DNA of 32,401 nucleotides from Patescibacteria group bacterium (GCA_038064515.1 JBBTSY010000006.1:1-32401); one strand, 5' to 3'. Positions 1 to 16,287 are shown, numbered from the stretch's first letter. Notes: generated from the letters alone by a model not told the origin. Numbers and translations are program-made.

Positions 1-37
1 TTAGTCGGGATTCTGCTGGAAATAAGTCCGAACTTTT

Positions 38-46
38 TGGTATAAT
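38..46 (+). promoter_or_regulatory. Extended -10 promoter (TGgTATAAT) for pcrA; probably leaderless, with the start at ATG 54
   Basis: TG at 38-39 and TATAAT at 41-46. The ATG at 45 overlaps the -10 box; the next in-frame ATG (54) lies 7 nt downstream of it. Confidence 0.6.
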
Positions 47-2021
47 GTCCACCATGGAACGCATCCTCCAAGGACTTAATGACAAACAGATAGAAGCGGT
101 ACGGGCTACCCAAGGGCCCGTTTTGGTTATCTCCGGACCCGGCTCCGGCAAAACGCGCTGTCTTACGCATCGAATTGCATATCTTATGGCTAATGGCATC
201 CCCGGAGAGCAAATCCTTGCCGTAACCTTCACTAACAAGGCGGCGAATGAAATCAAAGAGCGCGTTCACAAACTTTTGCATTCTGCAAACAGCGTGGGGG
301 GGCCGATCATTGGTACTTTCCACTCCCTCGGCCTCCGTATCTTGCGGCGAGAAATCGGGCTCCTTGGCTATGGCCGAAATTTTGTCATCCTCGACACCAA
401 TGACCAGCTGGCAGTCGTGAAACGCATGCTCGCGGCGAAAGAATTAGATTCAAAAAAATTCACTCCCAACGCAATCCTCAACGCCATATCTAAACTTAAA
501 ACGGAATTAATCTTTCCTGAATCCTACAATCCTCCTGACCTGCCTGCGCAGGCAGGATTTTATCAGCAGATAGTCGCCCAAATCTATAATAGCTACCAGC
601 AAGAACTTCAAAAGATGAATGGCTTGGACTTTGATGACTTAATCGCCCTACCGGTAAAGATTTTTAGAAATCATCCCGATATTCTCCAAAAATACCAAAA
701 TGCCTGGAAATACATCATGGTCGACGAATACCAGGATACCAGCCATGATCAGTACACTCTCATCACGCTCTTAGCGCGGGCCCACAAAAACCTTTTCTGC
801 ATCGGCGATGATGCCCAATCGATCTATATGTTCCGCGAAGCGGATATTCGGAACATTCTGAATTTCCAAAAGGATTATCCTGATGGAAAAGTTATTCTCC
901 TTGAGCAAAACTATCGCTCAACGAAGAATATTTTAGCCGCGGCGCAAAATGTCATCAGCCATAATAAAGCGCAGTTCCCTAAATCGCTATGGACCGAGAA
1001 CATAGCGGGGGAGAAGATCCACGTCCAAGAAACGGTCAACGAGCGCGATGAAGCAAACTTTATCGTAGCGCAGATACAAGGCATGATGGATGCGGGGCGG
1101 CCGATGAAAGATTTCACGGTGCTGTATCGAACTCATGCTCAATCCCGCGCATTGGAAGAAGCGCTTATCTTCAATGGCTTTCCGTACCAGATCATTGGCG
1201 GCATTAAATTCTACGAGCGAAAAGAGGTCAAAGACATCCTATCGTACTTGCGATTCCTCAATAATCCTAAAGACAGCGTGAGCTTAGATCGCATCTATAA
1301 TGTACCCACGAGGGGCATCGGCAAAACCACTATCGACAAGGTCGTAGCCCGTGAGGCAGGGGATCGCATTGAAGCTATCCAAAAACTTGCCGCGGAGAAA
1401 AAATCGAAACCACTTTTGGAATTTGCACTTTTGATTTCTGAACTTCGAGAAAACCTGCAAGGGCAGAAAGTCAGCACCGTTATGAAAACAATCGTCAAAA
1501 AGATCGGCTACGAGAATTATCTCATTAATCTCAAGGGCGATGCCTATGAAAATGCCGAAGAGCGCATTGAAAATCTCAAAGAGCTTTTTACGGTTGCGCG
1601 CAAGTACGATGATATGGGAAGCGAAGGAATTTCAAAATTCCTTGAAGATGTCGCACTCCTGCAAGAGACCGACAAGCTGAAAGATGATGAACAGCGGGTG
1701 ACGCTCATGACGATGCACTCCTCTAAGGGATTAGAATTTCCGGTCGTATTCATCATCGGCATGGAAGAAGGATTATTTCCCCATAACCGGTCGTTATTTG
1801 AACCGGCAGAGCTCGAAGAGGAGCGTCGTTTGTGCTACGTCGCGCTCACCCGCGCCCAGCAGAGACTCTTTCTTACCTATGCCAAGTGGCGGAATATCTT
1901 TGGTTCGACGCAAGCAAATCTGCCGTCGCGGTTCCTCGGAGAAATGCCCCAAGAACTCCTGGAACACAAGCGGTATGATTTCGGCGCCGACGAGGATGAT
2001 AAGATAATCATCGAATACTGA
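45..2021 (+). CDS. pcrA: ATP-dependent DNA helicase PcrA/UvrD (true start probably 54)
   Basis: SF1 motifs: LNDKQ Q-motif, GPGSGKT Walker A, VTFTNKAA, DEYQD, GDDAQSIY, LEQNYRS, MTMHSSKGLEF, EERRLCYVALTRA. No C-terminal Tudor-like domain. Confidence 0.96.
   Translation: MSTMERILQGLNDKQIEAVRATQGPVLVISGPGSGKTRCLTHRIAYLMANGIPGEQILAVTFTNKAANEIKERVHKLLHSANSVGGPIIGTFHSLGLRILRREIGLLGYGRNFVILDTNDQLAVVKRMLAAKELDSKKFTPNAILNAISKLKTELIFPESYNPPDLPAQAGFYQQIVAQIYNSYQQELQKMNGLDFDDLIALPVKIFRNHPDILQKYQNAWKYIMVDEYQDTSHDQYTLITLLARAHKNLFCIGDDAQSIYMFREADIRNILNFQKDYPDGKVILLEQNYRSTKNILAAAQNVISHNKAQFPKSLWTENIAGEKIHVQETVNERDEANFIVAQIQGMMDAGRPMKDFTVLYRTHAQSRALEEALIFNGFPYQIIGGIKFYERKEVKDILSYLRFLNNPKDSVSLDRIYNVPTRGIGKTTIDKVVAREAGDRIEAIQKLAAEKKSKPLLEFALLISELRENLQGQKVSTVMKTIVKKIGYENYLINLKGDAYENAEERIENLKELFTVARKYDDMGSEGISKFLEDVALLQETDKLKDDEQRVTLMTMHSSKGLEFPVVFIIGMEEGLFPHNRSLFEPAELEEERRLCYVALTRAQQRLFLTYAKWRNIFGSTQANLPSRFLGEMPQELLEHKRYDFGADEDDKIIIEY
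539..556. repeat. Perfect 18-bp palindrome CCTGCCTGCGCAGGCAGG in frame within pcrA
   Basis: The sequence equals its own reverse complement; it encodes LPAQAG and its length is a multiple of 3. Confidence 0.85.
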
Positions 2022-2806
2022 TGAAGATCCCGGCAAAAAAATCTCTGGGCCAAAACTTCCTCTCCAATCCTCGAATTTTGGAAAAGATTTGCACGGCCGC
2101 GCAACTAACGAAAGGGGACACGGTGCTTGAAGTTGGACCAGGCACGGGAAATTTAACGCAGGTTTTATCCGAGAAAGTACAGAGCGTTATCGCTATCGAG
2201 AAAGACCACCGCCTTATCGAAGAATTGGGAAAGCGTTTCCCCGATACTCAACGCATTAAAGTCATCGAAGGAGATGCGCTTGAGGTCAATCCCGAATCGC
2301 TGGGCTTGAAAGCGCGGGAGTATAAAATCGTCGCGAATATTCCGTACTACATCACGTCGCATTTCATTCGAACTGTCTTTGAACAATGGCCGCGGCCTTC
2401 GGTCATCGTGCTTACCATCCAAAAAGAAGTGGCCCAACGCATCGTTGCAAAGTCACCGCATATGAACCTACTAGCCTTGTCGGTGCAATTTTACGCCGAC
2501 GCTAAGATTATCGACACGATCAAACGGGGCAGTTTCAACCCGGTACCAAAGGTGGATTCAGCTATTATCAAAATTGTCCCCAGAATCGCACCGTTACTGA
2601 TTAAGCCTGAACTTTTTTTCCGCACTATCAAGGCTGGATTTTCTAGCCCCCGAAAACAGCTCATAAACAACCTGGTGCCCCAGTTTGGGGATCGGGAGAC
2701 AGTAACCGAGAGGCTCAAGAAGGTGTATAGTGATGAACATGCTCGGCCAGAAAATCTTCCCCTCCAAACATGGTTCGATTTAAGCAGTATGTTCGACAAA
2801 TCATAA
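2021..2806 (+). CDS. rsmA: 16S rRNA m6,2A dimethyltransferase RsmA/KsgA
   Basis: KKSLGQNFL, VLEVGPGTGNLT SAM motif, VANIPYYIT, QKEVAQR, F-P-PKVDSA. Confidence 0.97.
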   Translation: MKIPAKKSLGQNFLSNPRILEKICTAAQLTKGDTVLEVGPGTGNLTQVLSEKVQSVIAIEKDHRLIEELGKRFPDTQRIKVIEGDALEVNPESLGLKAREYKIVANIPYYITSHFIRTVFEQWPRPSVIVLTIQKEVAQRIVAKSPHMNLLALSVQFYADAKIIDTIKRGSFNPVPKVDSAIIKIVPRIAPLLIKPELFFRTIKAGFSSPRKQLINNLVPQFGDRETVTERLKKVYSDEHARPENLPLQTWFDLSSMFDKS

Positions 2807-4206
2807 GTTCGGATTTTACCTATGGATTCGGCATAGGACTTGTCTATTTTGGCTATATTTTTTCCTGGATGTGGTCGCTCTATCCTTTAGAAATGGCGGG
2901 TATTGCCAATCCGTGGCTCGCTTTTACTTTAATCCTCATCGCTTTCCTCTTAAGCGTAATCGTCCTGGCATTGCCTTGGGGATTCTTTTCTTGGCTCTTA
3001 AACAATGGACTGCATTATAAACACTGGACGACTCCCTTTGCAATTGCCGGTATCTTTACATTATTGGAGTATTGCCGATCGTGGTTATTCGGCATCTTGT
3101 GGTTAGGAGATGGGAGCATCCTGGGCCCACTTTGGACTTTTGGCAATATCGCATACTGGTTTTCTGACATACCGTGGATTACTCGAACGGCGGCGGTGTG
3201 GGGCATGTACGGCATTACTTTCTTAGTTACGCTTTTCATAGCCCTCCTGTTCTCTACTTTTCGACAGCGATCTTTATCGACGAAACTTTCAATACAATGG
3301 ACGGTTTTTCTTCTCATAACTGTCCTTGGTTTTACGCCGGCTCGCGGCCAGTACCTTAATGCCATAGATGTGGCGGTGGTACAAACGAATAACCCAACCC
3401 GGCCGACATACACGCAGAATGAAATAATTGATGATTTCCAGAAAAAACTCACGCTGATCTCTTCAGCCGCCAAGCAGTTACCTGGAGGCGGTATAATACT
3501 CTTGCCGGAAGGCGCGGGACTTTCTACGGGCTTTTCTTCCTTATTGACCCCCAACCAGCTTCGTGAATACCTTATGAAACTCTCTCCTCAAGGAATCACT
3601 ATCATCAATAACGGCAAAGTTATGGTTGATAACAATATAATCTCACGCACTCAAGCAATCACTCCTGAAGAAAATAATCTTGAATACCATGACAAACGCA
3701 CACTAAGCCCGTGGGGTGAATTTCGCCCCTATATCGCCAAGTTTGTCTTGAGGCTCTTCGGCCTTAAAGCGTCAATCGAGAATGAGCTCATGCCTGGATA
3801 TGCCCAGGGACCTCTCGCTGTGCCTCAAGGGCTATTTTCCATCGCAATCTGCTCCGAGATTTTTGCCCCACAGCGGCAGGCGGCAGAAGCCATTCTGGGC
3901 ATGGGAAGTCTCGGTTTCTTTGATGGGAATACGCTTGTGGAGAGTCAGGTCCTCTCTGCGGCTCGGATGAGAGCTGCCGAAAATCAAAAATACCTGGTTT
4001 GGGCCTCAAATGCCGGACGTTCTTATTTTATAAATGACCGCGGAAATACGATAAAAATCACATCGCAACCGGGATACGAGATATTAACAGGAACAATCGT
4101 GTCCAATAACATTCGTACGTGGTATAATCTATTAGGAGATTGGCCAATTTTAATAGTCTCCCTGGCCGTCTCTTTCTTGGCGTTAAAAAGAAGGAATGAC
4201 AAATAA
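2770..4206 (+). CDS. lnt: Apolipoprotein N-acyltransferase (Lnt)-like protein: multi-TM plus nitrilase/CN-hydrolase domain
   Basis: N-terminal TM helices with LEYCRSW and GMYGITF; VAVVQTN; triad-like E (LLPEG), K (HDKRTLSPWGE) and C (AICSE); RMRAAEN; SNAGRS; TWY-LLGDW before the last TM. Confidence 0.8.
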   Translation: MVRFKQYVRQIISSDFTYGFGIGLVYFGYIFSWMWSLYPLEMAGIANPWLAFTLILIAFLLSVIVLALPWGFFSWLLNNGLHYKHWTTPFAIAGIFTLLEYCRSWLFGILWLGDGSILGPLWTFGNIAYWFSDIPWITRTAAVWGMYGITFLVTLFIALLFSTFRQRSLSTKLSIQWTVFLLITVLGFTPARGQYLNAIDVAVVQTNNPTRPTYTQNEIIDDFQKKLTLISSAAKQLPGGGIILLPEGAGLSTGFSSLLTPNQLREYLMKLSPQGITIINNGKVMVDNNIISRTQAITPEENNLEYHDKRTLSPWGEFRPYIAKFVLRLFGLKASIENELMPGYAQGPLAVPQGLFSIAICSEIFAPQRQAAEAILGMGSLGFFDGNTLVESQVLSAARMRAAENQKYLVWASNAGRSYFINDRGNTIKITSQPGYEILTGTIVSNNIRTWYNLLGDWPILIVSLAVSFLALKRRNDK

Positions 4207-5104
4207 AATTAGGTTTTTACTTTTCTGTTTGGCGCTCATCACCGCTTTTTCGGCGTATACGTTTTTTACATCGTTTCAAAAAACGTCTCAATTTAAAAAT
4301 GCAAGCCCCTTGCAAGCGATCTCTGACAAACAAGTGTCTACTGGCGACAGCGATGGCGATAGTTTGAGTGACAGCGATGAGTCTCTCTGGAACACGGATT
4401 TTAATAATCCCGACAGTGATGGCGACGGGTATCTTGATGGAGAAGAGGTAGCTTCGGGCCATGATCCGCTTGTTGCCGGACCCAAAGATTCGCTTACCGA
4501 GATCAATATCACCGAAAAAGTCACTACCTTAATAGTCTCGGGTATTTACGCTGAAGATCTTAAACCAAAAGAGGATAATCAAAAATTCGGCCAAGCATTG
4601 AGCAATGTGGCGAATGCCGCGATTGATGATTTTTATATTTCCCAACCACAGCTAGCAAAACCGGCCGTTCGTAGCGTCCCCGGCACAAAACAAAACCAGG
4701 AACTGTATATAACCATTGTCGGCGACAGTCTAAAAAACGAAATATTAGATTTCACGGAGGCCGCTCAAACAAATGGTGCGGATTCGAGTCGGGAATATTT
4801 CATCGAAAAATCCACCCGATTAAAAAGTATTCAACAACGGCTTCTAATCATAGATGTGCCTAAGGAGTGGCTTGATATCCATACTGAAATAATTGATATA
4901 TTATTTCGACTTTCCGCTGACTATTACAGCATCAGTGAATATAATAGCGACCCCATGCGAGCCCTTATCGCCATTAATGAAGTTAAGAGCGTTATCGATC
5001 CCCAGATCAAATCCTTACTTCAGAGAACCAATAAACGTATTAGCGAAAATAGCCTTGTGCCGGCAAGTAGTTTTTATGAAATACTTCGGCTCCTCTACCA
5101 ATGA
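4196..5104 (+). CDS. Membrane-anchored protein with thrombospondin-type-3-like (DxDxDG) Ca-binding repeats and a helical C-terminus
   Basis: N-terminal hydrophobic anchor; DSDGDSLSDSDE and NPDSDGDGYLDGEEVASGHDPL. Confidence 0.7.
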   Translation: MTNKIRFLLFCLALITAFSAYTFFTSFQKTSQFKNASPLQAISDKQVSTGDSDGDSLSDSDESLWNTDFNNPDSDGDGYLDGEEVASGHDPLVAGPKDSLTEINITEKVTTLIVSGIYAEDLKPKEDNQKFGQALSNVANAAIDDFYISQPQLAKPAVRSVPGTKQNQELYITIVGDSLKNEILDFTEAAQTNGADSSREYFIEKSTRLKSIQQRLLIIDVPKEWLDIHTEIIDILFRLSADYYSISEYNSDPMRALIAINEVKSVIDPQIKSLLQRTNKRISENSLVPASSFYEILRLLYQ

Positions 5105-6744
5105 AATCTATTTATAGAAAAATTGTTGCCGCTATTCTCTGTGTATCTTTTATTGGTGGCACTATCAACCTCTCTCCCGTGGCCAAAGCCACTGATGGGG
5201 GAGGGGCCTGGGCCCAAGCAAGCGCCTATATGACCAAAGAATATGGTCTCGACACCATATCTCGTGCCGCAGCCGCGGGCTTGTATCAGTTTGCCGTTAA
5301 CAAACTCTTAGAGAAGATTCAAGGGCGAGGGGGAGAGCAATCAGGCATCATCAAAGATTGGCGGAATTTTCAAACAAATGCCCAATACCGAGGTGAGGAT
5401 GTCTTCCGATCCATCCTAGCGAATACCCGGGTTTGTGATTATTTGCGAAAAGATATAGATACCGCCTTCCGAGTTTCTAGCAGGTTTAAAATACCTCTTC
5501 AGGGTCATAATATACGCGTCAACGACCTTGATCCTTACACATTACGGGCTCGTTGTAGCATGGCTACAAACTTTGACCCGCAGAAATTCCAACAAGATTT
5601 TGCCGGAAACGGCGGTTGGCAGGCTTACACCCAATTATTACAGCCTGAAAATAATTTTTATGGGTTACTTCTGCAATCGCTTGGGGAACTTGAACAGCAG
5701 CGCGCCCTGGAAGAAGGCGCGGATTTGCGGGATGCCCAAACGGGATACCGGTCATTTCGGCCACCTGAATGCGAGCAACCTCTAAATGCCACTTCGCGAT
5801 GTATTTTCCTTGGTAAAGTCGCGACTCCTGGTGATTTAGTAGCCAAAGCGGCAGGACTTATACTCGATAAAAACCTAGAGTGGCTGACTAACGCGGATGA
5901 AATCTCTGAAATCGTAGTGGCTATAGCCAATTATGCCTATGACTATTTTAGCAACCTGTCTGAAGCTGACGATTTTACCGCCGAGGACACTATAGGTAGC
6001 GAAAGCGCAGATCAACTTGAGTATTGCACCGCGAAGCGACCCAGTGAAAGAGTCCAAAAAAAATACAGTTCTAAGTTTCCTGGATACACAAAAAAGGGGA
6101 GTCTTGTCAAAAAAATTAATTTAGTGGGTCTAACTCTCACCCTTGCGGAAATTCTTGGCTTACGAAATGGGGGGAAAGATGGACCTTGTGAAGCGTTACG
6201 AAATAAGGATAATCCATACCCGTTCCAGACATGTAGTCAGAATTGCCTAAAAGACGTGGGCTATATCCCTGTTGACATTAATCTGCCTCCTCTTCAAGAT
6301 GAGTACATCCTCAATGATACGGAAAGTACATCAAGTCCCGCGCCTCGACCCAGTGGTTCTCCCGGCCCTTCGGGGCCTCCGCCCTCAACGTGCGCGCCAG
6401 ACGCCGGCGGCTGCGTAGTTAACGAAATAGGTAACACCTGCGTCAACGCAAGCTACCGCGAAGCGGTTGTGGCCGCTATCACCCAATACATCCAAAGTAA
6501 TCCCGACGTATTTGAAGATCCTGGCGCGGATGCTCCTACCATCAAAGACGGGCGGACGCAGGAATACATGGCGGGCGTTGTCGCTATCCTAAATCAGCAA
6601 GGATATTCAGCCCAAGTTGATTCAGAGGACGAAATTGTCGTGAAACGTTCAGGCGGGTCGTTCTCGGAATCATACGATATCCTCACGTCGGGTAGGCAAG
6701 TACGCCGTTTCCACGCGGCAACCTGCACCCCAGCGTCATTCTAA
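5101..6744 (+). CDS. Large secreted, Cys-containing modular protein in the T4SS-like locus
   Basis: Signal peptide (...SPVAKA), helical region with GGW..Y...QPENN.YG and TPG, many Cys, Pro/Ser linker, distinct C-terminal domain. ATGA overlap with the upstream gene. Confidence 0.7.
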   Translation: MKSIYRKIVAAILCVSFIGGTINLSPVAKATDGGGAWAQASAYMTKEYGLDTISRAAAAGLYQFAVNKLLEKIQGRGGEQSGIIKDWRNFQTNAQYRGEDVFRSILANTRVCDYLRKDIDTAFRVSSRFKIPLQGHNIRVNDLDPYTLRARCSMATNFDPQKFQQDFAGNGGWQAYTQLLQPENNFYGLLLQSLGELEQQRALEEGADLRDAQTGYRSFRPPECEQPLNATSRCIFLGKVATPGDLVAKAAGLILDKNLEWLTNADEISEIVVAIANYAYDYFSNLSEADDFTAEDTIGSESADQLEYCTAKRPSERVQKKYSSKFPGYTKKGSLVKKINLVGLTLTLAEILGLRNGGKDGPCEALRNKDNPYPFQTCSQNCLKDVGYIPVDINLPPLQDEYILNDTESTSSPAPRPSGSPGPSGPPPSTCAPDAGGCVVNEIGNTCVNASYREAVVAAITQYIQSNPDVFEDPGADAPTIKDGRTQEYMAGVVAILNQQGYSAQVDSEDEIVVKRSGGSFSESYDILTSGRQVRRFHAATCTPASF

Positions 6745-6754
6745 TGGCCGCCCC

Positions 6755-8947
6755 TTGGCAAGTCATCGCATGCTTACATATTTTTCTCAAAAGTTCGCGT
6801 TAAAAAAAATTCTCTTGGCCATTATTTTGGGCGTGTTTGTGGTAGTGGCAATCTTTCCGAGTTCCGCGCTGGCCGTCGATCCCCCCGCAAGCAAGGGTAC
6901 CAGCGTATACGCATTCCAAATGGGAACCGCCTTATATTGGGTGCTTACCGGCCTTCTTCAGGGGATCCATGCGCTGGCCCAGATATTCGAAACGTTTATT
7001 CACTACGGCATCAACGTAAATATCCCGGTCATCACCAACACTTGGAAAATTGTAAGAGATTTTGCCAACATGTTCTTCATCCTCATTATCATCATTATGG
7101 CGTTCGCCACCATCTTCGATGTAAGCGGGTATCAGGCTAATACCCAGCTTATTACAAAATTTTTAATAGTCGCCATTCTCATCAATTTCAGCCTCACGCT
7201 TAGCGGAATGTTCATCGGCGGGGTGGATAGGGTCAATGGCGTCTTTATTAACGGCCTCGGCAATATCGGCAGTCGCTTCGCTCAAGTCTTTAACGCGTCC
7301 GAGATCCTCGGTAGTGATAAAGTTAGTTTTAGTCGATCTATCATGGCAATGTTGGGGACGGCCGGATGTAATGCCACCGGCATAAGTTGGCTTGGTTTTG
7401 ATTGTCTTAGAGCTGGCGCAACACTAGCTGGAGTTCCTCAAAGCGCATTAAAATGGGCTACGTCCTTCCGGCTTCTCTTTTCGGTGATTCTTGTAGGCAT
7501 GATTGCCTTTGGAATGCTCATCTCCACGCTCTTTGCGCTTATACGAATTCCGTTTTTATGGTTCCTCCTTATATTTTCCCCTCTTGCCGGCCTGGCCAGT
7601 ATCCTGCCCGCCACGCGCCAAGGATGGAATATGTGGTTCAAGGAATTTATCGCTTGGAATACGTTCCTACCGCTATATCTTTTCTTCCTATATTTCGGAA
7701 TGTATTTTCTCTCGAGCCAAAATCAGGTTATGGCCAGCCTAAGCGCTTATCCAGTTACGGAAAAACTGCAAGGCATAGGTTTCTCAATCCAATTTGTATT
7801 CTTCTATCTCGTAGCCGGTTTCATTCTCCTCGGCGGATCCGCATTTGCCTTCGCCGCGTCCAGAAGCGCCGGCGGTTTGGCATCTACGATCGGAGTAAAG
7901 TGGAGCCAAGGTGCCGCGAATTGGACTCGCTCATTTGCCGGTCGGGCAACTCTCGTTACTCCGGCATATCAAGGCGCTAAGGAAGGGCTAAAGGCTAAAG
8001 GAGAACGTATTCGCAAAGAAGGCATGTTTGGCATTGGCGGAGGCTTAAAGGGCGAGGCGACACGCGCTGGCGTGGCGCAGATATTTGGAGTAAGGGGAGC
8101 CGTCGAGGAACAACGACGCGTTAAAATAAAGTATTTTGAGGATAAATTTAAGAAAGACAATCTTGATACTCCGAGACTTCGAGCTAACCTAGGATCCGCG
8201 CGAGGCGAGGAAAAGTTGGCTATCTATAGGCGCCTTAAGGATCTCAAGGACCTTGGGGGATATGAGATGTTAGAAGCTTATAAGCTCCACAAATCTACCG
8301 CGGGCGGAAACAGCGCCACAGATTTTGCTAAAGACATTGATTTCAAGAAAGACCTCGGAAAAAATGAGCGCCTGGATTGGTTTAAAGCCTCTGACGTTGA
8401 CAATGACGTCAAAAGAAAATTAGCGAACGTGATGGCCGATGAAGGAGAGTTTAAAGAACGGAGAGAAATCCTTACGGCTTTACGCCTATATCGAGTAGGT
8501 AACGAGCGACGTGATTTCTTATTATCAAGATTAGCCAAAAAGAAGCTTATTGAGGCTTACAGCATCGCCGAACGCCTACACATGAAGGATACTAAGGGAG
8601 ATCCCGTTGATACGAACCAATACTTAGAAAAGGAAATTGCCCGACGAAAAGGAGAAGATCTCCTGGGCCTCATTGATGGCGCTTTTTATAATCCTGCCAC
8701 TGACAGACTTAAAGATCCAACGACTCTAAATCCCGAACAAAAAATACTCATGAATAAGTTGATTGAAGTATTCATGAAGCCCGATACTGCCCAAAATCTT
8801 ACCAGAAATCCAAACGCCACCCCGGAACAGCGATTAATCGTTACATTTTTAGGTGACGCCGCGAAAGATAGGGCTAGAATAAGGGCAGGAAGAGCGGTGG
8901 GTACTCCAACTCCGAGCCGTACCCCTCATTCAGATCCTTTCCCATAA
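6755..8947 (+). CDS. VirB6/TrbL-like polytopic membrane protein with a long charged C-terminal extension (start TTG 6755 or ATG 6770)
   Basis: W-IVRDFANMFFI, AILINFS, LIRI..LW.L.IFSPLA....ILP.T...W..W pattern typical of VirB6-like cores; located upstream of PrgI and VirB4. Confidence 0.7.
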   Translation: MASHRMLTYFSQKFALKKILLAIILGVFVVVAIFPSSALAVDPPASKGTSVYAFQMGTALYWVLTGLLQGIHALAQIFETFIHYGINVNIPVITNTWKIVRDFANMFFILIIIIMAFATIFDVSGYQANTQLITKFLIVAILINFSLTLSGMFIGGVDRVNGVFINGLGNIGSRFAQVFNASEILGSDKVSFSRSIMAMLGTAGCNATGISWLGFDCLRAGATLAGVPQSALKWATSFRLLFSVILVGMIAFGMLISTLFALIRIPFLWFLLIFSPLAGLASILPATRQGWNMWFKEFIAWNTFLPLYLFFLYFGMYFLSSQNQVMASLSAYPVTEKLQGIGFSIQFVFFYLVAGFILLGGSAFAFAASRSAGGLASTIGVKWSQGAANWTRSFAGRATLVTPAYQGAKEGLKAKGERIRKEGMFGIGGGLKGEATRAGVAQIFGVRGAVEEQRRVKIKYFEDKFKKDNLDTPRLRANLGSARGEEKLAIYRRLKDLKDLGGYEMLEAYKLHKSTAGGNSATDFAKDIDFKKDLGKNERLDWFKASDVDNDVKRKLANVMADEGEFKERREILTALRLYRVGNERRDFLLSRLAKKKLIEAYSIAERLHMKDTKGDPVDTNQYLEKEIARRKGEDLLGLIDGAFYNPATDRLKDPTTLNPEQKILMNKLIEVFMKPDTAQNLTRNPNATPEQRLIVTFLGDAAKDRARIRAGRAVGTPTPSRTPHSDPFP

Positions 8948-8950
8948 ACT

Positions 8951-9424
8951 ATGGAAGATACCATTGATCCAATAATCTACTACAGCTACAGTCCTTATTT
9001 CGCGGGACTGACAGAAGAATCAAAAGAATCTCGATCGAGGTTTTTTGAGCGTTATCAAAAACTGCCGGAAAGTATCCAAAACTTTCTGACTGATTTTAAA
9101 ACCGCCGATTATATGTGGTCCCTGGGCCAGAACAATAATTTCACCGATGATCAAATTGCCCTCATGGCCCGGAAGGTGCGCGAGATAGTGGTAGGGAAAA
9201 TACCTTTGGATAGTTTCGCTTCGGAGATTTCCCGAGAACTGCCCTGCGACCAAAACTACGCCGCAGAGCTCGTTCGTTTTATTACTAACGATTTATTCGC
9301 ACCGATCATGGACGATATAAAAAAAATCCAGCAAGAAATGATACCCCCACCGCCAACGCCGTTTATTTCTAGCCAAGAGACGAATAAAAATAATATAATA
9401 GACCTGCGCGAGTTATCAGAATAA
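8951..9424 (+). CDS. Conserved-looking helical hypothetical protein of the T4SS-like locus
   Basis: 157-aa ORF tightly packed between neighbours (3-nt gaps); amphipathic helical pattern, Pro-rich tail, ends NIIDLRE. Confidence 0.7.
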   Translation: MEDTIDPIIYYSYSPYFAGLTEESKESRSRFFERYQKLPESIQNFLTDFKTADYMWSLGQNNNFTDDQIALMARKVREIVVGKIPLDSFASEISRELPCDQNYAAELVRFITNDLFAPIMDDIKKIQQEMIPPPPTPFISSQETNKNNIIDLRELSE

Positions 9425-9427
9425 ATC

Positions 9428-9745
9428 ATGAAATTTCAATTACCACAATTTATTGAAACCGAGGTAAAATTAGTAGGGCCGTTCACCCTGAAGCAGTTCC
9501 TCTGGATCGCCGCGGGAGCGTCAATGCTTTTTGTGTTATTCATCGTAGTGCACGGCTTTTGGTTTTTCGTCCTGGCAATTCCTATCGTCGCCTCATCGCT
9601 TTCTCTGGCCTTTGTAAAAATGCAGGGAGTCCCGCTTATCAACTACGCGTCATATATGCTTTCGTATTTCTTAAACCCTAAAAAATATCTGTATCAAAAT
9701 CGGACATCGCAATCATTGCCCATAAATCTAAAAAATAATGGCTAG
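9428..9745 (+). CDS. PrgI-family (VirB3-like) membrane protein
   Basis: FQLPQFIETEVKLVGPFTLKQF N-terminal motif, two TM helices, P-K-Y tail; lies upstream of VirB4. Confidence 0.85.
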   Translation: MKFQLPQFIETEVKLVGPFTLKQFLWIAAGASMLFVLFIVVHGFWFFVLAIPIVASSLSLAFVKMQGVPLINYASYMLSYFLNPKKYLYQNRTSQSLPINLKNNG

Positions 9746-10367
9746 TCCAACTACCCACAATCTTATCGAGATCGCTGACATCAAAGATAGCGTCGTGCTT
9801 CTCCGCAATGGTTCGCTCCGCTTGGTTCTTGAGGTATCGGCGATTAACTTCGAGCTGCGCTCAGAAGACGAACAGTCCGCCATCATCCAGAGCTTCCAAA
9901 ATTTCCTCAATTCGATCGATTTTCCGATCCAAATTGTCATCGGCTCACAGCGATACGATATCGATGACTACTTAAAGACAGTGGCCGCGGCGACAGATGC
10001 GCTTACCAATGATCTTCTTAAAATCCAGGCGGCGGAATACATGAAATTTGTTCAAGACCTTTCATCGCTGGCAAATATCATGTCGAAACACTTTTATATC
10101 GTCATTCCGTTTTATATCGTCGAAACAGGAGGCGGGAAAGGGATATTAGACAGCATTAAAGGCATCTTCAAGAGTTCAGCATCTATTGCCGCGATTCCCG
10201 AAGAACAGTTTGCCGCCTATCAAAACCAGCTCGTTCAGCGGGCAGAGCTGGTATTCGATAGCCTCGTAGGTAGCGGGCTTCGCGCTCGAATTCTGGAGAA
10301 AGGTGAGTTGGAAAATCTTTTCTACCTGCTATACAACCCGGGAAGCAAGCCTAAAATTCAATCATGA
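9738..10367 (+). CDS. TraC/VirB4 N-terminal-domain-like protein
   Basis: VLEVSAINFELRSEDEQ..II..FQ.FLNS..FPIQI and K.FYIVIP motifs; no Walker A; sits between PrgI and VirB4. Confidence 0.7.
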   Translation: MASPTTHNLIEIADIKDSVVLLRNGSLRLVLEVSAINFELRSEDEQSAIIQSFQNFLNSIDFPIQIVIGSQRYDIDDYLKTVAAATDALTNDLLKIQAAEYMKFVQDLSSLANIMSKHFYIVIPFYIVETGGGKGILDSIKGIFKSSASIAAIPEEQFAAYQNQLVQRAELVFDSLVGSGLRARILEKGELENLFYLLYNPGSKPKIQS

Positions 10368-12118
10368 CCATGGATCCAAAAAATATATCTACCGTTGCCT
10401 CTTCCATCGCTCCTTCGGCCCTAAGCATCACCCCCAACTACGTTCAGATAGGGGAGAAGTATGCGCGCACTATTTTCCTGGCTACGTTCCCGCGCTTCTT
10501 GCACACCAATTGGTTCTCCCCGATCGTTAATTTTGATCGGGTATTTCAGACAGCGATTTATGTCGTTCCCAAAAACACCGCCGCTGTATTAAAACAGCTC
10601 CGCGATCAGCTCGCCCGACTGCAGGCCCAGGCAATGGAGGAGGCATCGTCCGGAAAAGTGCGGGATCCTCTCCTGGAAACAGCCATGGGCGATATCGAAA
10701 TTCTTCGCGACAAGTTACAGCAAGGAACGGATAAATTCTTTGAGCTTGGCGTTTACATAACCTTCTTTGAGGATAATGTTAAAGCTCTTAATGACACCGA
10801 GGGAAAATTCAAATCACTCCTTGAGTATCAGCTCGTATTCGCCCGCCCGGCAGTCTTTAGAATGCTCGAAGGCTTCACTTCAACTTTGCCCATTAATGAT
10901 GACCGTTTGAGCGTGTATACCTCTCTCAACACCGAACCGATCTCTTCTATTTTCCCCTTTATTTCATACGACCTCACGTCGAGCTCGGGCATTCTCTACG
11001 GCATCAACACCCACAATAATTCCCTTGTGCTCTTCGATCGTTTCAGTCTGGAGAACGCCAATATGGTGGTTTTTGGCACCTCTGGAGGAGGCAAGAGCTA
11101 CACCATCAAGCTCGAACTTCTCCGTAGCCTCATTATGGGAACACAGGTGTTTGTCCTTGATCCTGAAAACGAATATAAATTCCTCGCGGAGACGGTTGGC
11201 GGAACGACAATAAAAATCTCAATCAATTCCGACCAGCACATCAATCCGTTTGATCTGCCCGTCCCGAGACCGGGGGAGTCATCATCGGATATCTTCAATT
11301 CTCACATCCTTAATCTTTCCGGCTTGATGAAATTGCTCTTGGGAACCTTGACCCCCCAGGAGGACGCCCTTCTTGATGAAGCGCTTATTCAGACGTATGC
11401 CATTAAAGACATAACTCCCGATACTGACTTTTCTCAAGCGGCTCCGCCCATCTTGGGTGATCTTCAAAGCGTCATGGAGGGACTATCGGGCGCCGAAGCC
11501 ATGGCCACCCGGCTAAGAAAGTTTACCCAAGGCACCTTCGCCGGCTTTCTTAATCGGCCCACCAATGTGCCTCTAGACAACCAGCTCATCGTGTTTGGTA
11601 TTCGGGATATGGAAGAAGAGCTCCGACCGGTGGCCATGTATCTTGTCCTTAATTTCCTCTGGACCCAGATCCGCCGAGAGTTAAAGAAACGCCTCCTGGT
11701 TATTGATGAGGCGTGGTGGCTTATGAAATATCCCGTGGGCGCGGATTTCTTATTTAATATTGCTAAGCGCGGACGTAAATATTATGTCGGCCTCACCACT
11801 ATCACCCAAGATATTCCCGACTTTATGGGTATCCCCCAGGGAAAAGCGGTTGTTGCCAATTCTGCCATGCAAATTCTCATGAAACAATCACCCGCATCAA
11901 TTGAAGTGGTAAAAGAGACCTTCAATCTTACCGACAGCGAGAAGTATTATCTTCTGGAAGCGCGGGTCGGCTTTGGGCTATTTTTCCTTGGCGCCAATCA
12001 TGTCGGTATCCGCGTAACGCCGTCATACGCCGAGGATCAAATTGTTACCTCGGACCCCAGACAAATCCTCGAAATTGAAAAGGCAAAAGAAGAATTGGCT
12101 AACCTCAACGCACAATAG
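10364..12118 (+). CDS. virB4: VirB4/TraC-family type IV secretion ATPase
   Basis: GILYGIN, NANMVVFGTSGGGKS (Walker A), VLDPENEY, INPFD, LLVIDEAW (Walker B), KRGRKY..TTITQ. Confidence 0.9.
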   Translation: MTMDPKNISTVASSIAPSALSITPNYVQIGEKYARTIFLATFPRFLHTNWFSPIVNFDRVFQTAIYVVPKNTAAVLKQLRDQLARLQAQAMEEASSGKVRDPLLETAMGDIEILRDKLQQGTDKFFELGVYITFFEDNVKALNDTEGKFKSLLEYQLVFARPAVFRMLEGFTSTLPINDDRLSVYTSLNTEPISSIFPFISYDLTSSSGILYGINTHNNSLVLFDRFSLENANMVVFGTSGGGKSYTIKLELLRSLIMGTQVFVLDPENEYKFLAETVGGTTIKISINSDQHINPFDLPVPRPGESSSDIFNSHILNLSGLMKLLLGTLTPQEDALLDEALIQTYAIKDITPDTDFSQAAPPILGDLQSVMEGLSGAEAMATRLRKFTQGTFAGFLNRPTNVPLDNQLIVFGIRDMEEELRPVAMYLVLNFLWTQIRRELKKRLLVIDEAWWLMKYPVGADFLFNIAKRGRKYYVGLTTITQDIPDFMGIPQGKAVVANSAMQILMKQSPASIEVVKETFNLTDSEKYYLLEARVGFGLFFLGANHVGIRVTPSYAEDQIVTSDPRQILEIEKAKEELANLNAQ

Positions 12119-12123
12119 TATGT

Positions 12124-12846
12124 ATGGTATATACTCCCGACCAACTCGCTCACGAAGAACTGGTTAAAAATCAGCTTTCTCACGCTCAGTCCCAACAACA
12201 ACAGCAGACGGCAATCGCCGAGACCACGCAACAGATTAAAAAACCATCGTTCTTGGGGTACTTACTGCTCCTTTTTCTCGCAGCGATTCTCGACATCATA
12301 GACCTGATCGAGTTTACGGGTGTTGGCATTATTATTTCAAAAATAATCCAAGTGTTCGCTACGGTTTTCTTCGTTTCTATCGCTTTTTTCGTCAACAAAA
12401 AGATTAAGCGCATGCGTATGGCTAGCGATTTTCTGGACATGCGTGCCAAAAGGATCCTCCTGCGCGTTCAGCAACTAAGAACTCGATATGCCGCCGCTAT
12501 TAAACTCTCCCGCAAGGTTAAATTTCTTCGAAAACCTGTACGTAAATTCGCCCTAGCAACCCGCAAAATTTCTAAAGCCATCACCCGCAATCCGATCGGG
12601 AAAAGCCTTTTGGCCAATGTTTTGGAGTTTATTCCGTTAGTCGGCGTACTTCCTTTCCAAATGATCAGTGTCTATCTTATGTATCGCGACCATAAAAAAA
12701 CGTATGTCGAATCCTTAGCTACCGTGCCCGAATATCAAGAGGCTAAGGCCGCAGAAGAAGAGGAATTTAACAACGAACAAGTTGAGCTCTACGAAAGAAT
12801 CATGGCGGAATCTTTACCCGGCGAAGACAACTCTGAACCCGCCTAA
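12124..12846 (+). CDS. Membrane protein with TM hairpins, a very basic centre and an acidic tail
   Basis: Hydrophobic segments (FLGYLLLLFLAAILD; LEFIPLVGVLPF), K/R-rich middle, E-rich C-terminus. Confidence 0.7.
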   Translation: MVYTPDQLAHEELVKNQLSHAQSQQQQQTAIAETTQQIKKPSFLGYLLLLFLAAILDIIDLIEFTGVGIIISKIIQVFATVFFVSIAFFVNKKIKRMRMASDFLDMRAKRILLRVQQLRTRYAAAIKLSRKVKFLRKPVRKFALATRKISKAITRNPIGKSLLANVLEFIPLVGVLPFQMISVYLMYRDHKKTYVESLATVPEYQEAKAAEEEEFNNEQVELYERIMAESLPGEDNSEPA

Positions 12847-12882
12847 CTTTTATAAATCCCCACGCCAAGGTACAATAATCAC

Positions 12883-14013
12883 ATGCGTAGTGAAAAAATA
12901 ATCATCCTTTTGGTTGTTGTCTCCTTCTCCGTGTCGGGATTACTGGCCTGGTATCTTTTCGGCCGCAATGACGCCCCTCCGCGTCCCAACTTAACCCGAG
13001 CTAATATTACCAACGAAGCTAAAAGATCTCCGGCTTTGGCCGGACAGGCTACGCCCCCCGACGCCAATACGCGCATACCTTCTCCCGCGCCGATCAGTGG
13101 GGGAAAAGCAATCTCGATAACCGCCTCATCTCAAAAAGGAAGGGTTCTATACTATAATCCGGAAACTGGCATCGTCACTGAAACCGATTTTAATGGCAGT
13201 AACAGCGTCGTAATCTCACCAATAAAACTCCCGGGGTTTCTCCGAACTATCTGGTCGCCGAATAAAAGCGAAGTAATCTCCGAATTCGTATCGTCGCGGT
13301 TCAGATATTTTAATTACATCACGAAACAATCGGTTAATCTGGGGTCCGGGGTACGATCAATCGTTTTTAGTCCCGATGGATCTCAAATTGCGTATTTTCT
13401 TAAAAATTCTGAAGGTGGCGGTATCTATCTGGCCAGTCCGGACAATCAGGAATCAAAGAAAATCTTAAACACCCGCTTTTCAAAAGTCCAGCTTTTGTGG
13501 CCCGGAAAAGATTTATTGAGCCTCGTTGCGCATGACGAGCAAACCGACCGAGAGAGCCTTTTTACCCTCACTCTCGGGGGCAGGCTGACGAAAATCTTAG
13601 ATAACCTTTCTCATATCGAAACCGTGTGGTCTCGCGAGGGAGAGAATGTCATTATTTCTTTTTTTGACGAGCACGATGCCCTTCAGACGGTGCGTTATAC
13701 TGTGGCTACGGGGGAATCTCGGAAACTCGATACGGAATCACGCGCCTCGCAATGCATGTGGACCGCCGCCGCACAGGTCGTACTATGCGCCGTTTCACAA
13801 ACTCCCATGAGTTCCGCCGCACTCGAAAATAAATCAAAGATCGCCCAGGACATGTATGAGATAGATCCGAAATTAGGAACAAAAAAACTCCTCTTCTCAA
13901 GCGGGAGCGGGGGTTCAAAGATCCAGATTGCCGAGCTGTTGCTGTCGCCAGCCGAAGATTATTTGATTTTTACGAACGTATTTGACGAAAGACTCTACAG
14001 TTTTAAACGCTAG
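12883..14013 (+). CDS. Membrane-anchored TolB/WD40-like beta-propeller protein
   Basis: N-terminal TM, Pro-rich linker, repeated WSP / FSPDGSQIAY / WSREG / LSPAEDYL blade motifs. Confidence 0.75.
   Translation: MRSEKIIILLVVVSFSVSGLLAWYLFGRNDAPPRPNLTRANITNEAKRSPALAGQATPPDANTRIPSPAPISGGKAISITASSQKGRVLYYNPETGIVTETDFNGSNSVVISPIKLPGFLRTIWSPNKSEVISEFVSSRFRYFNYITKQSVNLGSGVRSIVFSPDGSQIAYFLKNSEGGGIYLASPDNQESKKILNTRFSKVQLLWPGKDLLSLVAHDEQTDRESLFTLTLGGRLTKILDNLSHIETVWSREGENVIISFFDEHDALQTVRYTVATGESRKLDTESRASQCMWTAAAQVVLCAVSQTPMSSAALENKSKIAQDMYEIDPKLGTKKLLFSSGSGGSKIQIAELLLSPAEDYLIFTNVFDERLYSFKR
13029..13044. repeat. Short GC-rich hairpin TCCGGC-TTTG-GCCGGA inside the propeller gene linker
   Basis: 6-bp perfect stem with a 4-nt loop; encodes SPALAG. 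Confidence 0.5.
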
Positions 14014-14483
14014 CTCAAACTAAATGGCTTAATAACGATGCGCCGCTGGGGCTCCTCGCCAATGCTCTCGGTGGTGACGTCGGGGCACGAAGCAAGCTCC
14101 ATATGCACAACGCGCCGTTCATATGCCGACATGGGCGCGAGCGCTTCTGCTTTCTGGTTATCGCGTACCCGATTTAATGCCTGTCTCGCCAGTTCAATGG
14201 CATATTGCGTTTTTGCTTTTTTATAGTCATTCACATCTACTGAAATTGCTCGGGGCTCCTGCTCCACTTTAGAATATACCAACCGAATGAGATGCTCTAG
14301 CGCTTTGAGATTTTGGCCATTTCTACCGATAAGAAAGCGGGCGTTCTCGGGCGCATAGAGAGAGATAAACAACCCCTTGGAACCTTCAGTGTTTTCTTCG
14401 ATAATCTCAACGCGGCAATCAAGCTTCATGAAGCCAGTGATTGTTTTAAGGATCTCGGAAATTTTTTCCCGGTTTTGGTTCAT
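14010..14483 (-). CDS. jag: Jag/KhpB/EloR RNA-binding protein (KH + R3H; no N-terminal Jag domain)
   Basis: LIGRNGQNLKALEHL (KH), VDVNDY, MSAYERRVVH (R3H), TESIGEEP-RR; follows yidC. Confidence 0.9.
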   Translation of the reverse strand: MNQNREKISEILKTITGFMKLDCRVEIIEENTEGSKGLFISLYAPENARFLIGRNGQNLKALEHLIRLVYSKVEQEPRAISVDVNDYKKAKTQYAIELARQALNRVRDNQKAEALAPMSAYERRVVHMELASCPDVTTESIGEEPQRRIVIKPFSLS

Positions 14484-14490
14484 ATGCAGG

Positions 14491-15186
14491 TTAGGTGGAA
14501 TATCGATACTTTATCACCATTTGCTCGGCAATAGAAAAGAGTGTTGAAGTAATCCAATAGAGCGCCAGTCCCGCCGGTAGCCTCCAGGTAATGAAAATGA
14601 TCATCACCGGAAAGAAGTACAACATCTGCTTACTAAGCGCTACCGCCGTGGCGTTAGCCTGGGGTTGCTGTAATGCCGTTGATATTCGAGCCTGCACGAA
14701 CTGTAATATTCCGGCCGTAACGGCTAGAAATGAATTTCTAATGGTTACGTCGAGAAAACCCATCGAAATTTTATTAATAACGGTCGGGTTTTCTATAAAG
14801 CTGTACAATATTTGAAGGCTTTCGGGCTTAAAACCCGCGAGAAACGCTTGGTATAGGCCAATTAAGATCGGCAGCTGTATCAGGAGGGGAAGGCATCCGG
14901 CCAAGGGATTTACTTTGTGCTCTTTATAGAGCTGAAGCATAGCCGTAGACTGGGCCGCTTGATCGTTTTTGTGTTTCTCTTTAATCTCCTGCATTTTTGG
15001 ATTCAGTGCGCTCAATGCCCGTTGGGCCCGTTGGGCCCGGATAGAAAGCGGTGAGAATATCAGACGAATAAGAATCGTCAACACGATGATAGCCGCGCCA
15101 AAATCATGACCTGGAATAGTGTTGTATAGAAAGATAAGGAGATTAAAGAGGGGACGCGACAGAAGTTCGTTGAATAATTCTTTCAT
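14491..15186 (-). CDS. yidC: Membrane protein insertase YidC (short form)
   Basis: AIIVLTILIR, LYKEHKVNPLAGCLPLLIQLPI, PAGLALYW. Confidence 0.95.
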   Translation of the reverse strand: MKELFNELLSRPLFNLLIFLYNTIPGHDFGAAIIVLTILIRLIFSPLSIRAQRAQRALSALNPKMQEIKEKHKNDQAAQSTAMLQLYKEHKVNPLAGCLPLLIQLPILIGLYQAFLAGFKPESLQILYSFIENPTVINKISMGFLDVTIRNSFLAVTAGILQFVQARISTALQQPQANATAVALSKQMLYFFPVMIIFITWRLPAGLALYWITSTLFSIAEQMVIKYRYST

Positions 15187-15194
15187 GATTGAAA

Positions 15195-15422
15195 TTAGGG
15201 CAGATCAATACCGCCGGTTGAAAAGGGATTACAGCGCGCAATGCGCATCAGTGCTTTTACTAAACCCTCCGCTACGCCATAGCGCTCCACGACCCGAATA
15301 GCATACTCGGAGCAGGAGGGGTGAAATCGACACTGGGGTGCTACGAGCAGTATTGGCATCTGCGCAATAGCCCATGAATGATCTTGGTACCAGTGAAGTC
15401 CTTTAAGAAGTGTTTTTTTCAT
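15195..15422 (-). CDS. yidD: Membrane protein insertion efficiency factor YidD
   Basis: CRFHPSCSEY, RIARCNPF, GGID-P; lies between rnpA and yidC. Confidence 0.93.
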   Translation of the reverse strand: MKKTLLKGLHWYQDHSWAIAQMPILLVAPQCRFHPSCSEYAIRVVERYGVAEGLVKALMRIARCNPFSTGGIDLP

Positions 15423-15425
15423 ATA

Positions 15426-15758
15426 CTAGGACAGTTCTCCTAAAAGCTTAATAAGTTGCCGTCGGGCCTCTTTAAGATCACCCGAACAATCTTTCCTAAT
15501 ACTACATACTACATCATAGCCTTGCGCCAATTCCGAATGATTCCTAAAAACCTCGTTTAGGTGCCGTTTTACCTTATTTCTCCCTACCGCACTTTTGATG
15601 ACGCGCGCTGAAAGAATAATCCCAAAACGGCGCTTTTGGAGATTATCATTTTTACATCCCTTAATAAAGAAAAAACTGCCGTGCACAGTTTTTCCTTTCT
15701 TAAGAATCCTGCCAAAATCTTTGTCGTTCGTTATCCGATTTTGAGAAGACAGCGCCAT
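15426..15758 (-). CDS. rnpA: Ribonuclease P protein component
   Basis: RI....DF..I...G, RFGIILS, SAVGRNKVKR (RNR motif variant); synteny with rpmH and yidD. Confidence 0.9.
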   Translation of the reverse strand: MALSSQNRITNDKDFGRILKKGKTVHGSFFFIKGCKNDNLQKRRFGIILSARVIKSAVGRNKVKRHLNEVFRNHSELAQGYDVVCSIRKDCSGDLKEARRQLIKLLGELS

Positions 15759-15764
15759 TAAGAA

Positions 15765-15908
15765 CTAAACCGTTAATTTTTTGCGTTGTTTGCGCCGGCG
15801 ACGGGCAAGAACCGTGCGCCCCGTCTTCGACTTGCTTCGCGCCAAAAATCCATGCTTACGTTTTCGCTTCTTTACTTTTGGTTGATAACGCAGTGCTTTT
15901 GACGACAT
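15765..15908 (-). CDS. rpmH: 50S ribosomal protein L34 (47 aa; missing from the ORF track)
   Basis: Manual translation: [47 protein letters not shown]; divergent from dnaA. Confidence 0.96.
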
Positions 15909-15931
15909 AAAGGTGAATTATATTTACGGTT

Positions 15932-15960
15932 AGTATAGGTTTTTTGATTCCGTTTTGCAA
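15932..15960 (-). promoter_or_regulatory. Sigma70-type promoter for the rpmH operon
   Basis: Minus strand TTGCAA-17 nt-TATACT. Confidence 0.55.
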
Positions 15961-16061
15961 GAGCAAAATGGAATCAGGCAGATTCGCTGCCGATAGGCTT
16001 GAGTGAATCTGAGTTTCCTTAATATCTAGAATATTTTGCAAGAGCAAAATGGAATCAGGCA
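15945..16061. repeat. 28-bp direct repeat (15953-15980 and 16034-16061); the first copy is part of a 14-bp hairpin (15945-15976)
   Basis: TTTTGCAAGAGCAAAATGGAATCAGGCA occurs twice; TGATTCCGTTTTGC-AAGA-GCAAAATGGAATCA forms a stem-loop with one G-T pair. Confidence 0.9.
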
Positions 16062-16145
16062 AATTTGTGGCCCGGCGGGCTTAAGTAAATTTGAGCTACC
16101 TTTTTCTCTACAACAAAATTTAGGCGGGTCAATATTTACGAAAGG

Positions 16146-16237
16146 TTTTCCACCTGTTATACACAGTGTGTCCACCAATTCATCCTCTTGCGGCACTTTG
16201 GACCATTGGTTTTATTCTGTATACTGGTGGTGGATTA
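16146..16237. promoter_or_regulatory. DnaA-box cluster upstream of dnaA
   Basis: TTATACACA at 16157-16165 matches TTATNCACA; degenerate boxes TTTTCCACC (16146) and GGTGGATTA (16229). Confidence 0.6.
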
Positions 16238-16287
16238 GAAATTAACTACACGTTTCCTAGCGCGAAAGCGCTAAGAAACAAACTTGT

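Follow-up and report, generated by a model that had tools for sequence, protein, structure and literature searches.

The 32,401-nucleotide stretch of Patescibacteria group bacterium DNA analysed here (GCA_038064515.1, JBBTSY010000006.1:1-32401; hereafter the window) comes from one contig (C6) of a 647-kb genome in 12 contigs that is estimated to be 97.6% complete. Between positions 4196 and 14013 of its plus strand it carries nine co-oriented open reading frames (ORFs), g1 to g9 (Table 1), in which neighbours either overlap or stand no more than 36 nt apart. This block is very probably the chromosomal type IV secretion system (T4SS) of the Patescibacteria clade, which descends from the MPF-FATA conjugation machinery of monoderm bacteria and, in this Yanofskybacteria-like groundwater organism (Parcubacteria/Paceibacteria), sits beside dnaA and is passed on by vertical descent. 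Its genes encode the platform of the system in the cytoplasmic membrane, composed of a two-gene VirB4 motor, a PrgI/VirB3 protein and an extended VirB6-like channel protein, and five strictly co-located accessory proteins accompany this platform. An earlier reading of the sequence (the original prediction) had drawn the same nine genes, all of which are present as ORFs, and had offered them as an incompletely described system. That last point does not stand: the component set is already in print, and the finding is correct but already published, because Quinonero-Coronel et al. 2025 (PMC12102498) and Wang et al. 2023 (PMC10633639) report the same system.

The larger of the two motor genes, g7, encodes a member of the CD1110 family (matched over model positions 187-733), with a further NCBIfam match to TraC-F (5e-53) and a Pfam match to P-loop_TraG (1.8e-20). 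Its Walker A (GTSGGGKS) and Walker B (VIDEAW) motifs, which the original prediction had described as intact, are both present, and residues G241, G243, K244, S245, D448 and E449 are invariant among 30 VirB4 orthologues, whose mean column identity is 75%. The neighbouring g6, proposed earlier to be TraC-N-like, matches the NCBIfam models VirB4_plasma (positions 103-233), CD1110 (2.9e-4, positions 12-120) and TrsD (3e-4). Because g6 matches only the N-terminal part of VirB4 models and g7 the rest, VirB4 is encoded as two genes, one for a TrsD-like N-domain and one for the ATPase; they overlap by ATGA. The PrgI/VirB3-like identity of g5 was likewise borne out, by a Pfam match above the cut-off. 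All of the closest VirB4 relatives come from Candidate Phyla Radiation (CPR) genomes, with titles naming Candidatus Yanofskybacteria, Paceibacterota or Parcubacteria, at 52-78% identity (a comparison by sequence similarity).

In three relatives (G008, G021 and G030) a large insertion splits the VirB4 match directly behind the Walker A lysine. It is in-frame and about 565-665 residues long (GGGK / S...VHN / SYT) at L032:5992-9441 and L033:5986-9732, both on the minus strand. The L032 ORF, the only one scanned, has Intein_splicing (1e-14) and LAGLIDADG_3 (1.7e-16) matches, and the insertion is, by its domain content, a predicted P-loop intein in the T4SS motor.

The assignment of g3 as the VirB6 component, also made in the original prediction, rests on fold, and we hold it with moderate confidence. 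The gene lies two genes upstream of PrgI, and its product has six transmembrane-like segments, a net charge of +28 and a basic C-terminal half. Its own sequence has no Pfam or NCBIfam match; the TrbL/VirB6 Pfam model matches two of 30 g3 orthologues (best E = 2.4e-4), a profile of the orthologues finds nothing significant among Protein Data Bank (PDB) sequences (best E = 0.27), and an hhalign comparison of the g3 alignment with the single sequence of pCF10 PrgH gave a probability of 0.4. In the AlphaFold2 model (mean pLDDT 73) a membrane domain of about residues 50-375, predicted at pLDDT 80-92, is followed by a basic C-terminal region of about 330 residues (about 405-715) that looks like a generic alpha-solenoid. 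The top Foldseek matches of this model among 350,542 PDB chains are to TrwI/VirB6 of R388 (8rt9_F, E = 0.097, probability 1.0). In a VIA second look, the membrane domain superposed on DotA of Legionella (PDB 9ngy) with Z 12.0 over 262 residues and on TrwI (PDB 7o3v/8rt9) with Z 9.4-9.9 over 245-248 of 261-272 residues, g3 residues 69-378 covering nearly the whole TrwI chain, while the next unrelated protein (Z 7.8) aligned to the C-terminal solenoid. Compared with VirB6 and DotA, g3 is only 6-13% identical in sequence, has no TrbL Pfam match and carries the solenoid as an extra domain. No VirB5 partner was recognised; directly upstream of g3 lies g2, which has no detectable similarity to VirB5.

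Table 1. The nine-gene block and the gene directly upstream of it, with the occurrence of each gene in related loci. The fifth column gives tblastn presence in 20 loci; the sixth gives orthologue-profile presence in close (n = 48) / distant (n = 13) loci, counts that are partly circular (see text).
Gene and product	Position	Strand	Principal match	tblastn, of 20	Profile, close/distant
Lnt-like CN-hydrolase membrane protein	2770..4206	+	Pfam CN_hydrolase 6.1e-9, LNT_N 1.6e-8		
g1, 302 aa, TSP3 Ca-binding accessory protein, extracytoplasmic	4196..5104	+	TSP3_bac 3.5e-7	18	47/13
g2, 547 aa, secreted accessory protein, large unnamed family	5101..6744	+	without Pfam, NCBIfam or PDB match	19	48/12
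g3, 730 aa, extended VirB6-like polytopic membrane protein (by fold)	6755..8947	+	fold	20	48/13
g4, 157 aa, cytoplasmic helical protein	8951..9424	+	without family or PDB match	14	40/12
g5, 105 aa, PrgI/VirB3-like membrane protein	9428..9745	+	Pfam PrgI 2.4e-8	20	
g6, 209 aa, TrsD-like stand-alone VirB4 N-domain	9738..10367	+	NCBIfam VirB4_plasma 9e-11	20	
g7, 584 aa, VirB4 ATPase (MPF-FATA / CD1110 type)	10364..12118	+	CD1110 7e-95	20	
g8, 240 aa, small membrane protein	12124..12846	+	without family or PDB match	10	47/1
g9, 376 aa, membrane-anchored TolB-like beta-propeller, extracytoplasmic	12883..14013	+	profile vs PDB 1.7e-17	20	47/12

Further T4SS parts are encoded on other contigs of the genome. 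The original prediction had listed VirD4 and a VirB2-like pilin array as missing; this is true of the window and false of the genome. An 820-residue VirD4-like ATPase (TrwB_AAD_bind, T4SS-DNA_transf and TraG-D_C domains) is encoded at C4:54497-56959 among core genes, and the T4SS_pilin domain occurs six times, each unlinked to virB4. Five of these pilin genes form a tandem VirB2-like array at C7:91395-94783 on the minus strand (131, 157, 143, 366 and 312 residues), and two of the five are fusions, one with an N-terminal extracellular domain of about 270 residues, the other with a Cys-rich C-terminal domain. Directly downstream of the array is an ORF of 222 residues (C7:90618-91286) that is LAGLIDADG-like by eye only. 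The sixth pilin, a 305-residue fusion with a C-terminal T4SS pilin domain (C4:24618-25535), is divergently paired with a gene for a 448-residue coiled-coil protein with an SLT_2 transglycosylase domain (2.9e-10; the pair spans C4:23094-25535), a possible VirB1 equivalent standing apart from virB4. The apparatus is thus neither pilin-less nor VirD4-less, since these genes lie unlinked elsewhere in the genome.

Three relaxase families (PF03432, PF01076 and PF08751) had zero matches in the 12 contigs, and in the window we saw no relaxase or integrase domain, no VirB11 and no repeat-bounded island, as the original prediction had stated. A secretion ATPase from the same superfamily as VirB11 does occur in the window; this T2SSE-family protein of 562 residues with an MshEN N-domain (25474-27162, minus strand) lies 11 kb from the T4SS block and is of the PilB/GspE type, not of VirB11 size. 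It is therefore extremely improbable that the locus belongs to an integrative conjugative element or is what is left of a decaying one: VirB4, PrgI and TrsD are most similar to conjugative-element components of monoderms, but the block has a uniform G+C content (0.42-0.50), occupies the same site beside dnaA in 20 of 20 related loci, consists of intact and highly conserved genes, and has its VirD4-like gene on another contig among core genes and not with the mating-pair formation genes.

With the MPF-FATA T4SSs of monoderms (TrsC-TrsD-TrsE of pGO1/pSK41; PrgH-PrgI-PrgJ of pCF10) the locus shares a CD1110-type VirB4, a PrgI-family VirB3 and the absence of outer-membrane core proteins, and with the pGO1 type also the stand-alone TrsD-type N-domain gene (PMC12102498). 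It differs from them in that no relaxase of the three families searched was found, the coupling protein is not adjacent, the genome has VirB2-like pilins, and the locus is chromosomal and vertically inherited. Compared with pCF10, the block also lacks a PrgK-like hydrolase, a PrgL/VirB8-like protein and an LPXTG adhesin.

The locus is an ordinary member of the published patescibacterial system. Quinonero-Coronel et al. describe a monophyletic Patescibacteria VirB4 clade nested in MPF-FATA, in which TrsD is the commonest companion, along with PrgI/VirB3, VirB6 and arrays of VirB2-like pilins; homologues of the type IV coupling protein (T4CP) lie mostly far from virB4, relaxases are almost absent, and the neighbourhood in the Paceibacteria is dnaA/dnaN/rnpA/ksgA/rpmH (PMC12102498). 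The features shared here are VirB4 with a separate TrsD-like gene, PrgI/VirB3, a VirB6-like protein, VirB2-like pilin arrays, a VirD4-like gene far from virB4, no relaxase, and dnaA, dnaN, rnpA and ksgA as neighbours. Wang et al. report that the homologous T4SS (SEML1_0006-0019) and its pilins are essential to the epibiotic growth of Southlakia epibionticum (PMC10633639), and a 2025 review (PMC12857230) sums up the same points on the patescibacterial T4SS. In the accounts of these systems, the Southlakia pilin array lies inside the cluster, whereas here it is on another contig, and virB4 is followed by a peptidase or lysozyme gene where our locus instead has g8 and the TolB-like g9. We found no description of the accessory proteins in the literature searched. 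The main text of PMC12102498 does not name them (TolB, PD40, TSP3, thrombospondin and propeller occur 0 times), and its Supplementary Tables S3 and S4, on families near virB4, may hold them.

The system is widely and stably retained. Of 31 genomes in the family and order, 30 have a VirB4 relative (62-77% identity; the single miss is a genome that is 74% complete), and in a phylum-wide sample of 301 genomes the VirB4 profile had matches in 293, counting the unpublished G180, or in 292 of 300 without it. When proteins of the window were compared by tblastn with 20 loci from four families of the order, gene order and orientation were constant in all 20, running from ksgA or lnt through g1-g9 to jag-yidC-rnpA and dnaA-dnaN, and the same gene order recurred in 13 more distant Parcubacteria loci in which VirB4 is 52-57% identical. 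Vertical inheritance and lack of mobility, as originally proposed, are supported by this distribution. Across the 20 loci, PrgI is 41-58% and the TrsD-like g6 45-60% identical, while the accessory proteins are 22-37% identical where VirB4 is 63-76% identical; the accessory proteins are fast-evolving yet retained. For the orthologue-profile counts in Table 1 we used 61 distinct loci with enough flanking sequence, after removal of nine duplicates and of 29 loci cut by contig ends, and divided them by VirB4 identity into close (at least 62%) and distant (52-57%) loci. The five accessory ORFs do co-occur with virB4 across the order, and the original prediction, which had named a failure to co-occur as grounds for dropping it, therefore survives the comparison.

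It had also taken these ORFs for lineage-specific subunits, which fails for at least two of them. When the g2 and g4 profiles were run on 91 genomes sampled from the phylum, g2 matched five genomes including its own. In three of the others (G043, G057 and G083) the match shares strand and contig with virB4 and lies 6-8 kb upstream of it, and the fourth (G106) is a match of 40 residues on another contig than virB4. The g4 profile matched 17 genomes including its own, and 12 of the 16 others have it in the same orientation as virB4, 1.2-3.3 kb upstream; of the remainder, one is 18 kb from virB4, one is on another contig, and two have no listed virB4 position. Because these distant matches sit just upstream of virB4, the g2 and g4 families are tied to virB4 well outside their own lineage, in other classes or families.

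Of the accessory proteins, g1, g2, g9 and possibly the small membrane protein g8 are extracytoplasmic, and g4 is cytoplasmic. The product of g1, correctly foreseen as a Ca-binding repeat protein, has one transmembrane-like segment at residues 7-25 as an N-terminal anchor, two thrombospondin-type-3 repeats and then a helical domain; D51, D55, G78, G82, E83 and E84 are invariant in 35 sequences. At the other end of the block, g9 has a transmembrane-like segment at residues 6-24, a Pro-rich linker and a TolB-type beta-propeller, the fold originally predicted, which is recognised by the orthologue profile where its own sequence matches only weakly (PD40 0.076, TolB 0.051). It shares the propeller domain with TolB of the Tol-Pal system and differs from it in that the match covers the propeller only, a membrane anchor and the Pro-rich linker replace the N-terminal TolA-binding domain, and the gene lies in a T4SS block of a monoderm-type CPR bacterium, not in a tol-pal operon.

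The secreted g2 protein consists of a signal peptide, a conserved Cys-containing helical domain of about 250 residues (invariant C112, C152, W173, N184 and G215), and, beyond a Pro-rich linker, a C-terminal alpha/beta domain that is variable. A search of 1.84 billion proteins with its profile shows the family to be large, with 5,373 cluster representatives matching at E<=1e-3 and 794 matching at E<=1e-30. The best PDB profile match has E = 0.29. Although residues 80-260 of the AlphaFold2 model have pLDDT above 85, Foldseek returned nothing at E<=1e-3, the VIA wide search had a best Z of 6.0 (to generic helices) and the second look a best Z of 4.9; in the ESM Atlas only CPR 'hypothetical protein' clusters appeared, the structural matches having TM-scores below 0.3. 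Among the fold matches listed, there was no VirB5 chain and no NTF2-type match above Z 5. Because the fold searches gave no match, a VirB5-analogue and an NTF2/VirB8 identity for g2 both stay guesses, and its position directly upstream of the VirB6-like gene is the sole hint of a VirB5 role.

The g4 protein has no transmembrane segment. Its helical domain leads through a Pro-rich linker to a conserved C-terminal tail (N-I-I-D-L-R); across 36 sequences, L152 never varies and N148 is kept in at least 90%. The protein has no Pfam or NCBIfam family, and its best PDB profile match has E = 0.087. In a complex prediction with VirB4 and TrsD, g4 as partner scored 0.10 against a mark of 0.32, which speaks neither for nor against contact. 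We also considered the tail as a shared targeting signal and rejected this: among 2,283 ORFs of the genome only g4 carries it, barring two short doubtful ORFs, and it is therefore not a shared secretion signal.

The g8 protein has a transmembrane hairpin (transmembrane-like near residues 44-87), a basic amphipathic cytoplasmic stretch, a third transmembrane segment (158-184) and an acidic tail; no family matches it, and its best PDB profile match (E = 0.0031) is a coiled-coil artefact. In the distant loci the place of g8 is filled by other small ORFs with three transmembrane segments. The interval between virB4 and the propeller gene in these loci (L093-L113) is 1.7-2.9 kb long and is a variable part of the locus; it holds one or two small three-transmembrane proteins and, in most of these loci, a bitopic protein of 260-475 residues, in place of the single g8.

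Taken together, g1, g2, g4, g8 and g9 could be core subunits of the patescibacterial T4SS, widely conserved and so far undescribed. Under this proposal g2 would be the functional counterpart of VirB5 on a stalk or pilus tip, g4 would be an adaptor whose N-I-I-D-L-R tail docks on the ATPase or on the solenoid domain of the VirB6-like protein, and g1 and g9 would form a wall-spanning scaffold in place of VirB8, VirB9 and VirB10. As a joint proposal, with all of these roles, we regard it as tentative and on balance rather unlikely.

Several points weigh against our interpretation of the locus. The TrbL Pfam model is silent genome-wide at E<=10, and the fold scores of g3 are middling for helical membrane proteins (Z 9.4-12, with a Foldseek E of 0.1 and not below 0.001). 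No VirB8-like protein was found in the genome (PF04335, E<=10). The relaxase search covered the three Pfam families named above, without MOBC, MOBM, MOBT and MOBH, in a genome that is in 12 contigs. The counts from 61 loci are partly circular, because 29-39 of these loci had gone into the orthologue profiles; the tblastn counts from 20 loci are free of this. Lastly, because ksgA, jag and yidC are equally syntenic, g1, g8 and g9 could have stayed in place simply through the general stability of the region near the origin, and need not belong to the machine.

This last point leads to a different view of the accessory genes, in which at least g1, g8 and g9 encode ordinary envelope proteins that share a stable neighbourhood near the origin and are not subunits of the machine. 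Besides the flanking genes (dnaA among them) being as syntenic as the accessory genes, 12 of 13 distant loci have other small ORFs in the place of g8, and TolB-like propellers and TSP3 repeats are generic envelope modules. We nonetheless judge this view unlikely, given the close, partly overlapping spacing of the genes in the block, which is bounded by lnt and the convergent jag, the place that relatives of g2 and g4 hold upstream of virB4 in other families and classes, and the retention of g1 in 13 of 13 and of g9 in 12 of 13 loci whose VirB4 is only 52-57% identical.

We infer that the block functions as a T4SS, and by analogy with T4SS architecture a mechanism can be proposed. VirB4 hexamers, anchored by VirB3, would sit on the VirB6 platform, which would extract and polymerise VirB2-like pilins, and the resulting pilus or conduit would span the monoderm wall at the site of contact with the host. 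The SLT enzyme could open the wall, while the Ca-binding g1, the secreted g2 and the TolB-like g9 may constitute the extracellular part, a wall-spanning scaffold replacing VirB8, VirB1 and adhesins. The outcome would be a contact-dependent exchange of macromolecules needed for an epibiotic life style, not conjugation.

As to the direction of transport, we lean slightly towards a pilus or import role. In its most specific form, the machine would be a dedicated importer of host nucleic acid, like archaeal Ced or Helicobacter ComB, that feeds a cell unable to make nucleotides. This is a serious possibility that falls short of being probable. In its favour are the failure to find a relaxase in the three families searched, the conclusion of PMC12102498, which proposes import of DNA or other macromolecules, and a preprint (10.64898/2026.06.21.733656) reporting that a cultivated relative uses host RNA and has tubular structures 'that may be T4SS pili'. 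The g7 protein also has weak NCBIfam matches to CedB (4.5e-9) and CedD (2.5e-4), but both are far under their cut-offs and reflect only the common ATPase fold; the case is purely circumstantial, and the block has no nuclease, DNA-binding or ComEC-like gene. The opposite direction, export of protein effectors or toxins into the host bacterium, was suggested by Wang et al., who state that the Southlakia T4SS 'may instead export proteins' (PMC10633639), and would fit the retention in the genome of a VirD4-like coupling ATPase with a TraG-D_C domain. We think it improbable for the present locus, as we found no candidate effector with a recognisable signal, the g4 tail offers no shared secretion signal, and the t4cp homologue is reported not to be essential in Southlakia (PMC12102498).

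The block is embedded in core genes, as originally predicted: UvrD, KsgA and the Lnt-like gene lie upstream, and Jag, YidC, RnpA, DnaA and DnaN lie downstream. Elsewhere the window encodes other core functions (class A penicillin-binding protein, TyrS/TrpS, RuvC, YebC, RuvB, the PilB-like ATPase, NusA, trigger factor, cysteine desulfurase and two tRNAs). The end of the lnt-like gene overlaps the start of g1 by 11 nt, and an lnt-like gene lies directly upstream of g1 in 9 of 20 related loci, all of them from the order's three other families; it is at most a candidate member of the system. A homologue of apolipoprotein N-acyltransferase is odd in a presumed monoderm. The gene may share a transcript with the block.

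The predicted location beside the replication origin agrees with the adjacent dnaA and dnaN and with a minimum of the cumulative GC skew at 13-14 kb of the window, but DnaA-box consensus sites are not enriched (8 against 6.8 expected). On the plus strand (window positions 1-16000) the GC skew is negative to about 14 kb and positive beyond; if the origin is at dnaA, the 12-gene array from uvrD to g9 would be transcribed wholly head-on to replication. Scans of positions 1-16400 gave 26 promoters (24.2 expected) and 24 terminators (19.6 expected), from which operon boundaries are not definable.

That the T4SS is near-universal in a huge and mostly uncultured phylum, and essential in the one species tested, was already in print. 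The present analysis adds a conserved parts list for the Paceibacteria/Yanofskybacteria version of the system and two large unnamed families, those of g2 and g4, which accompany virB4 across classes and offer well-defined starting points for structural and genetic studies of how epibiont and host are connected.

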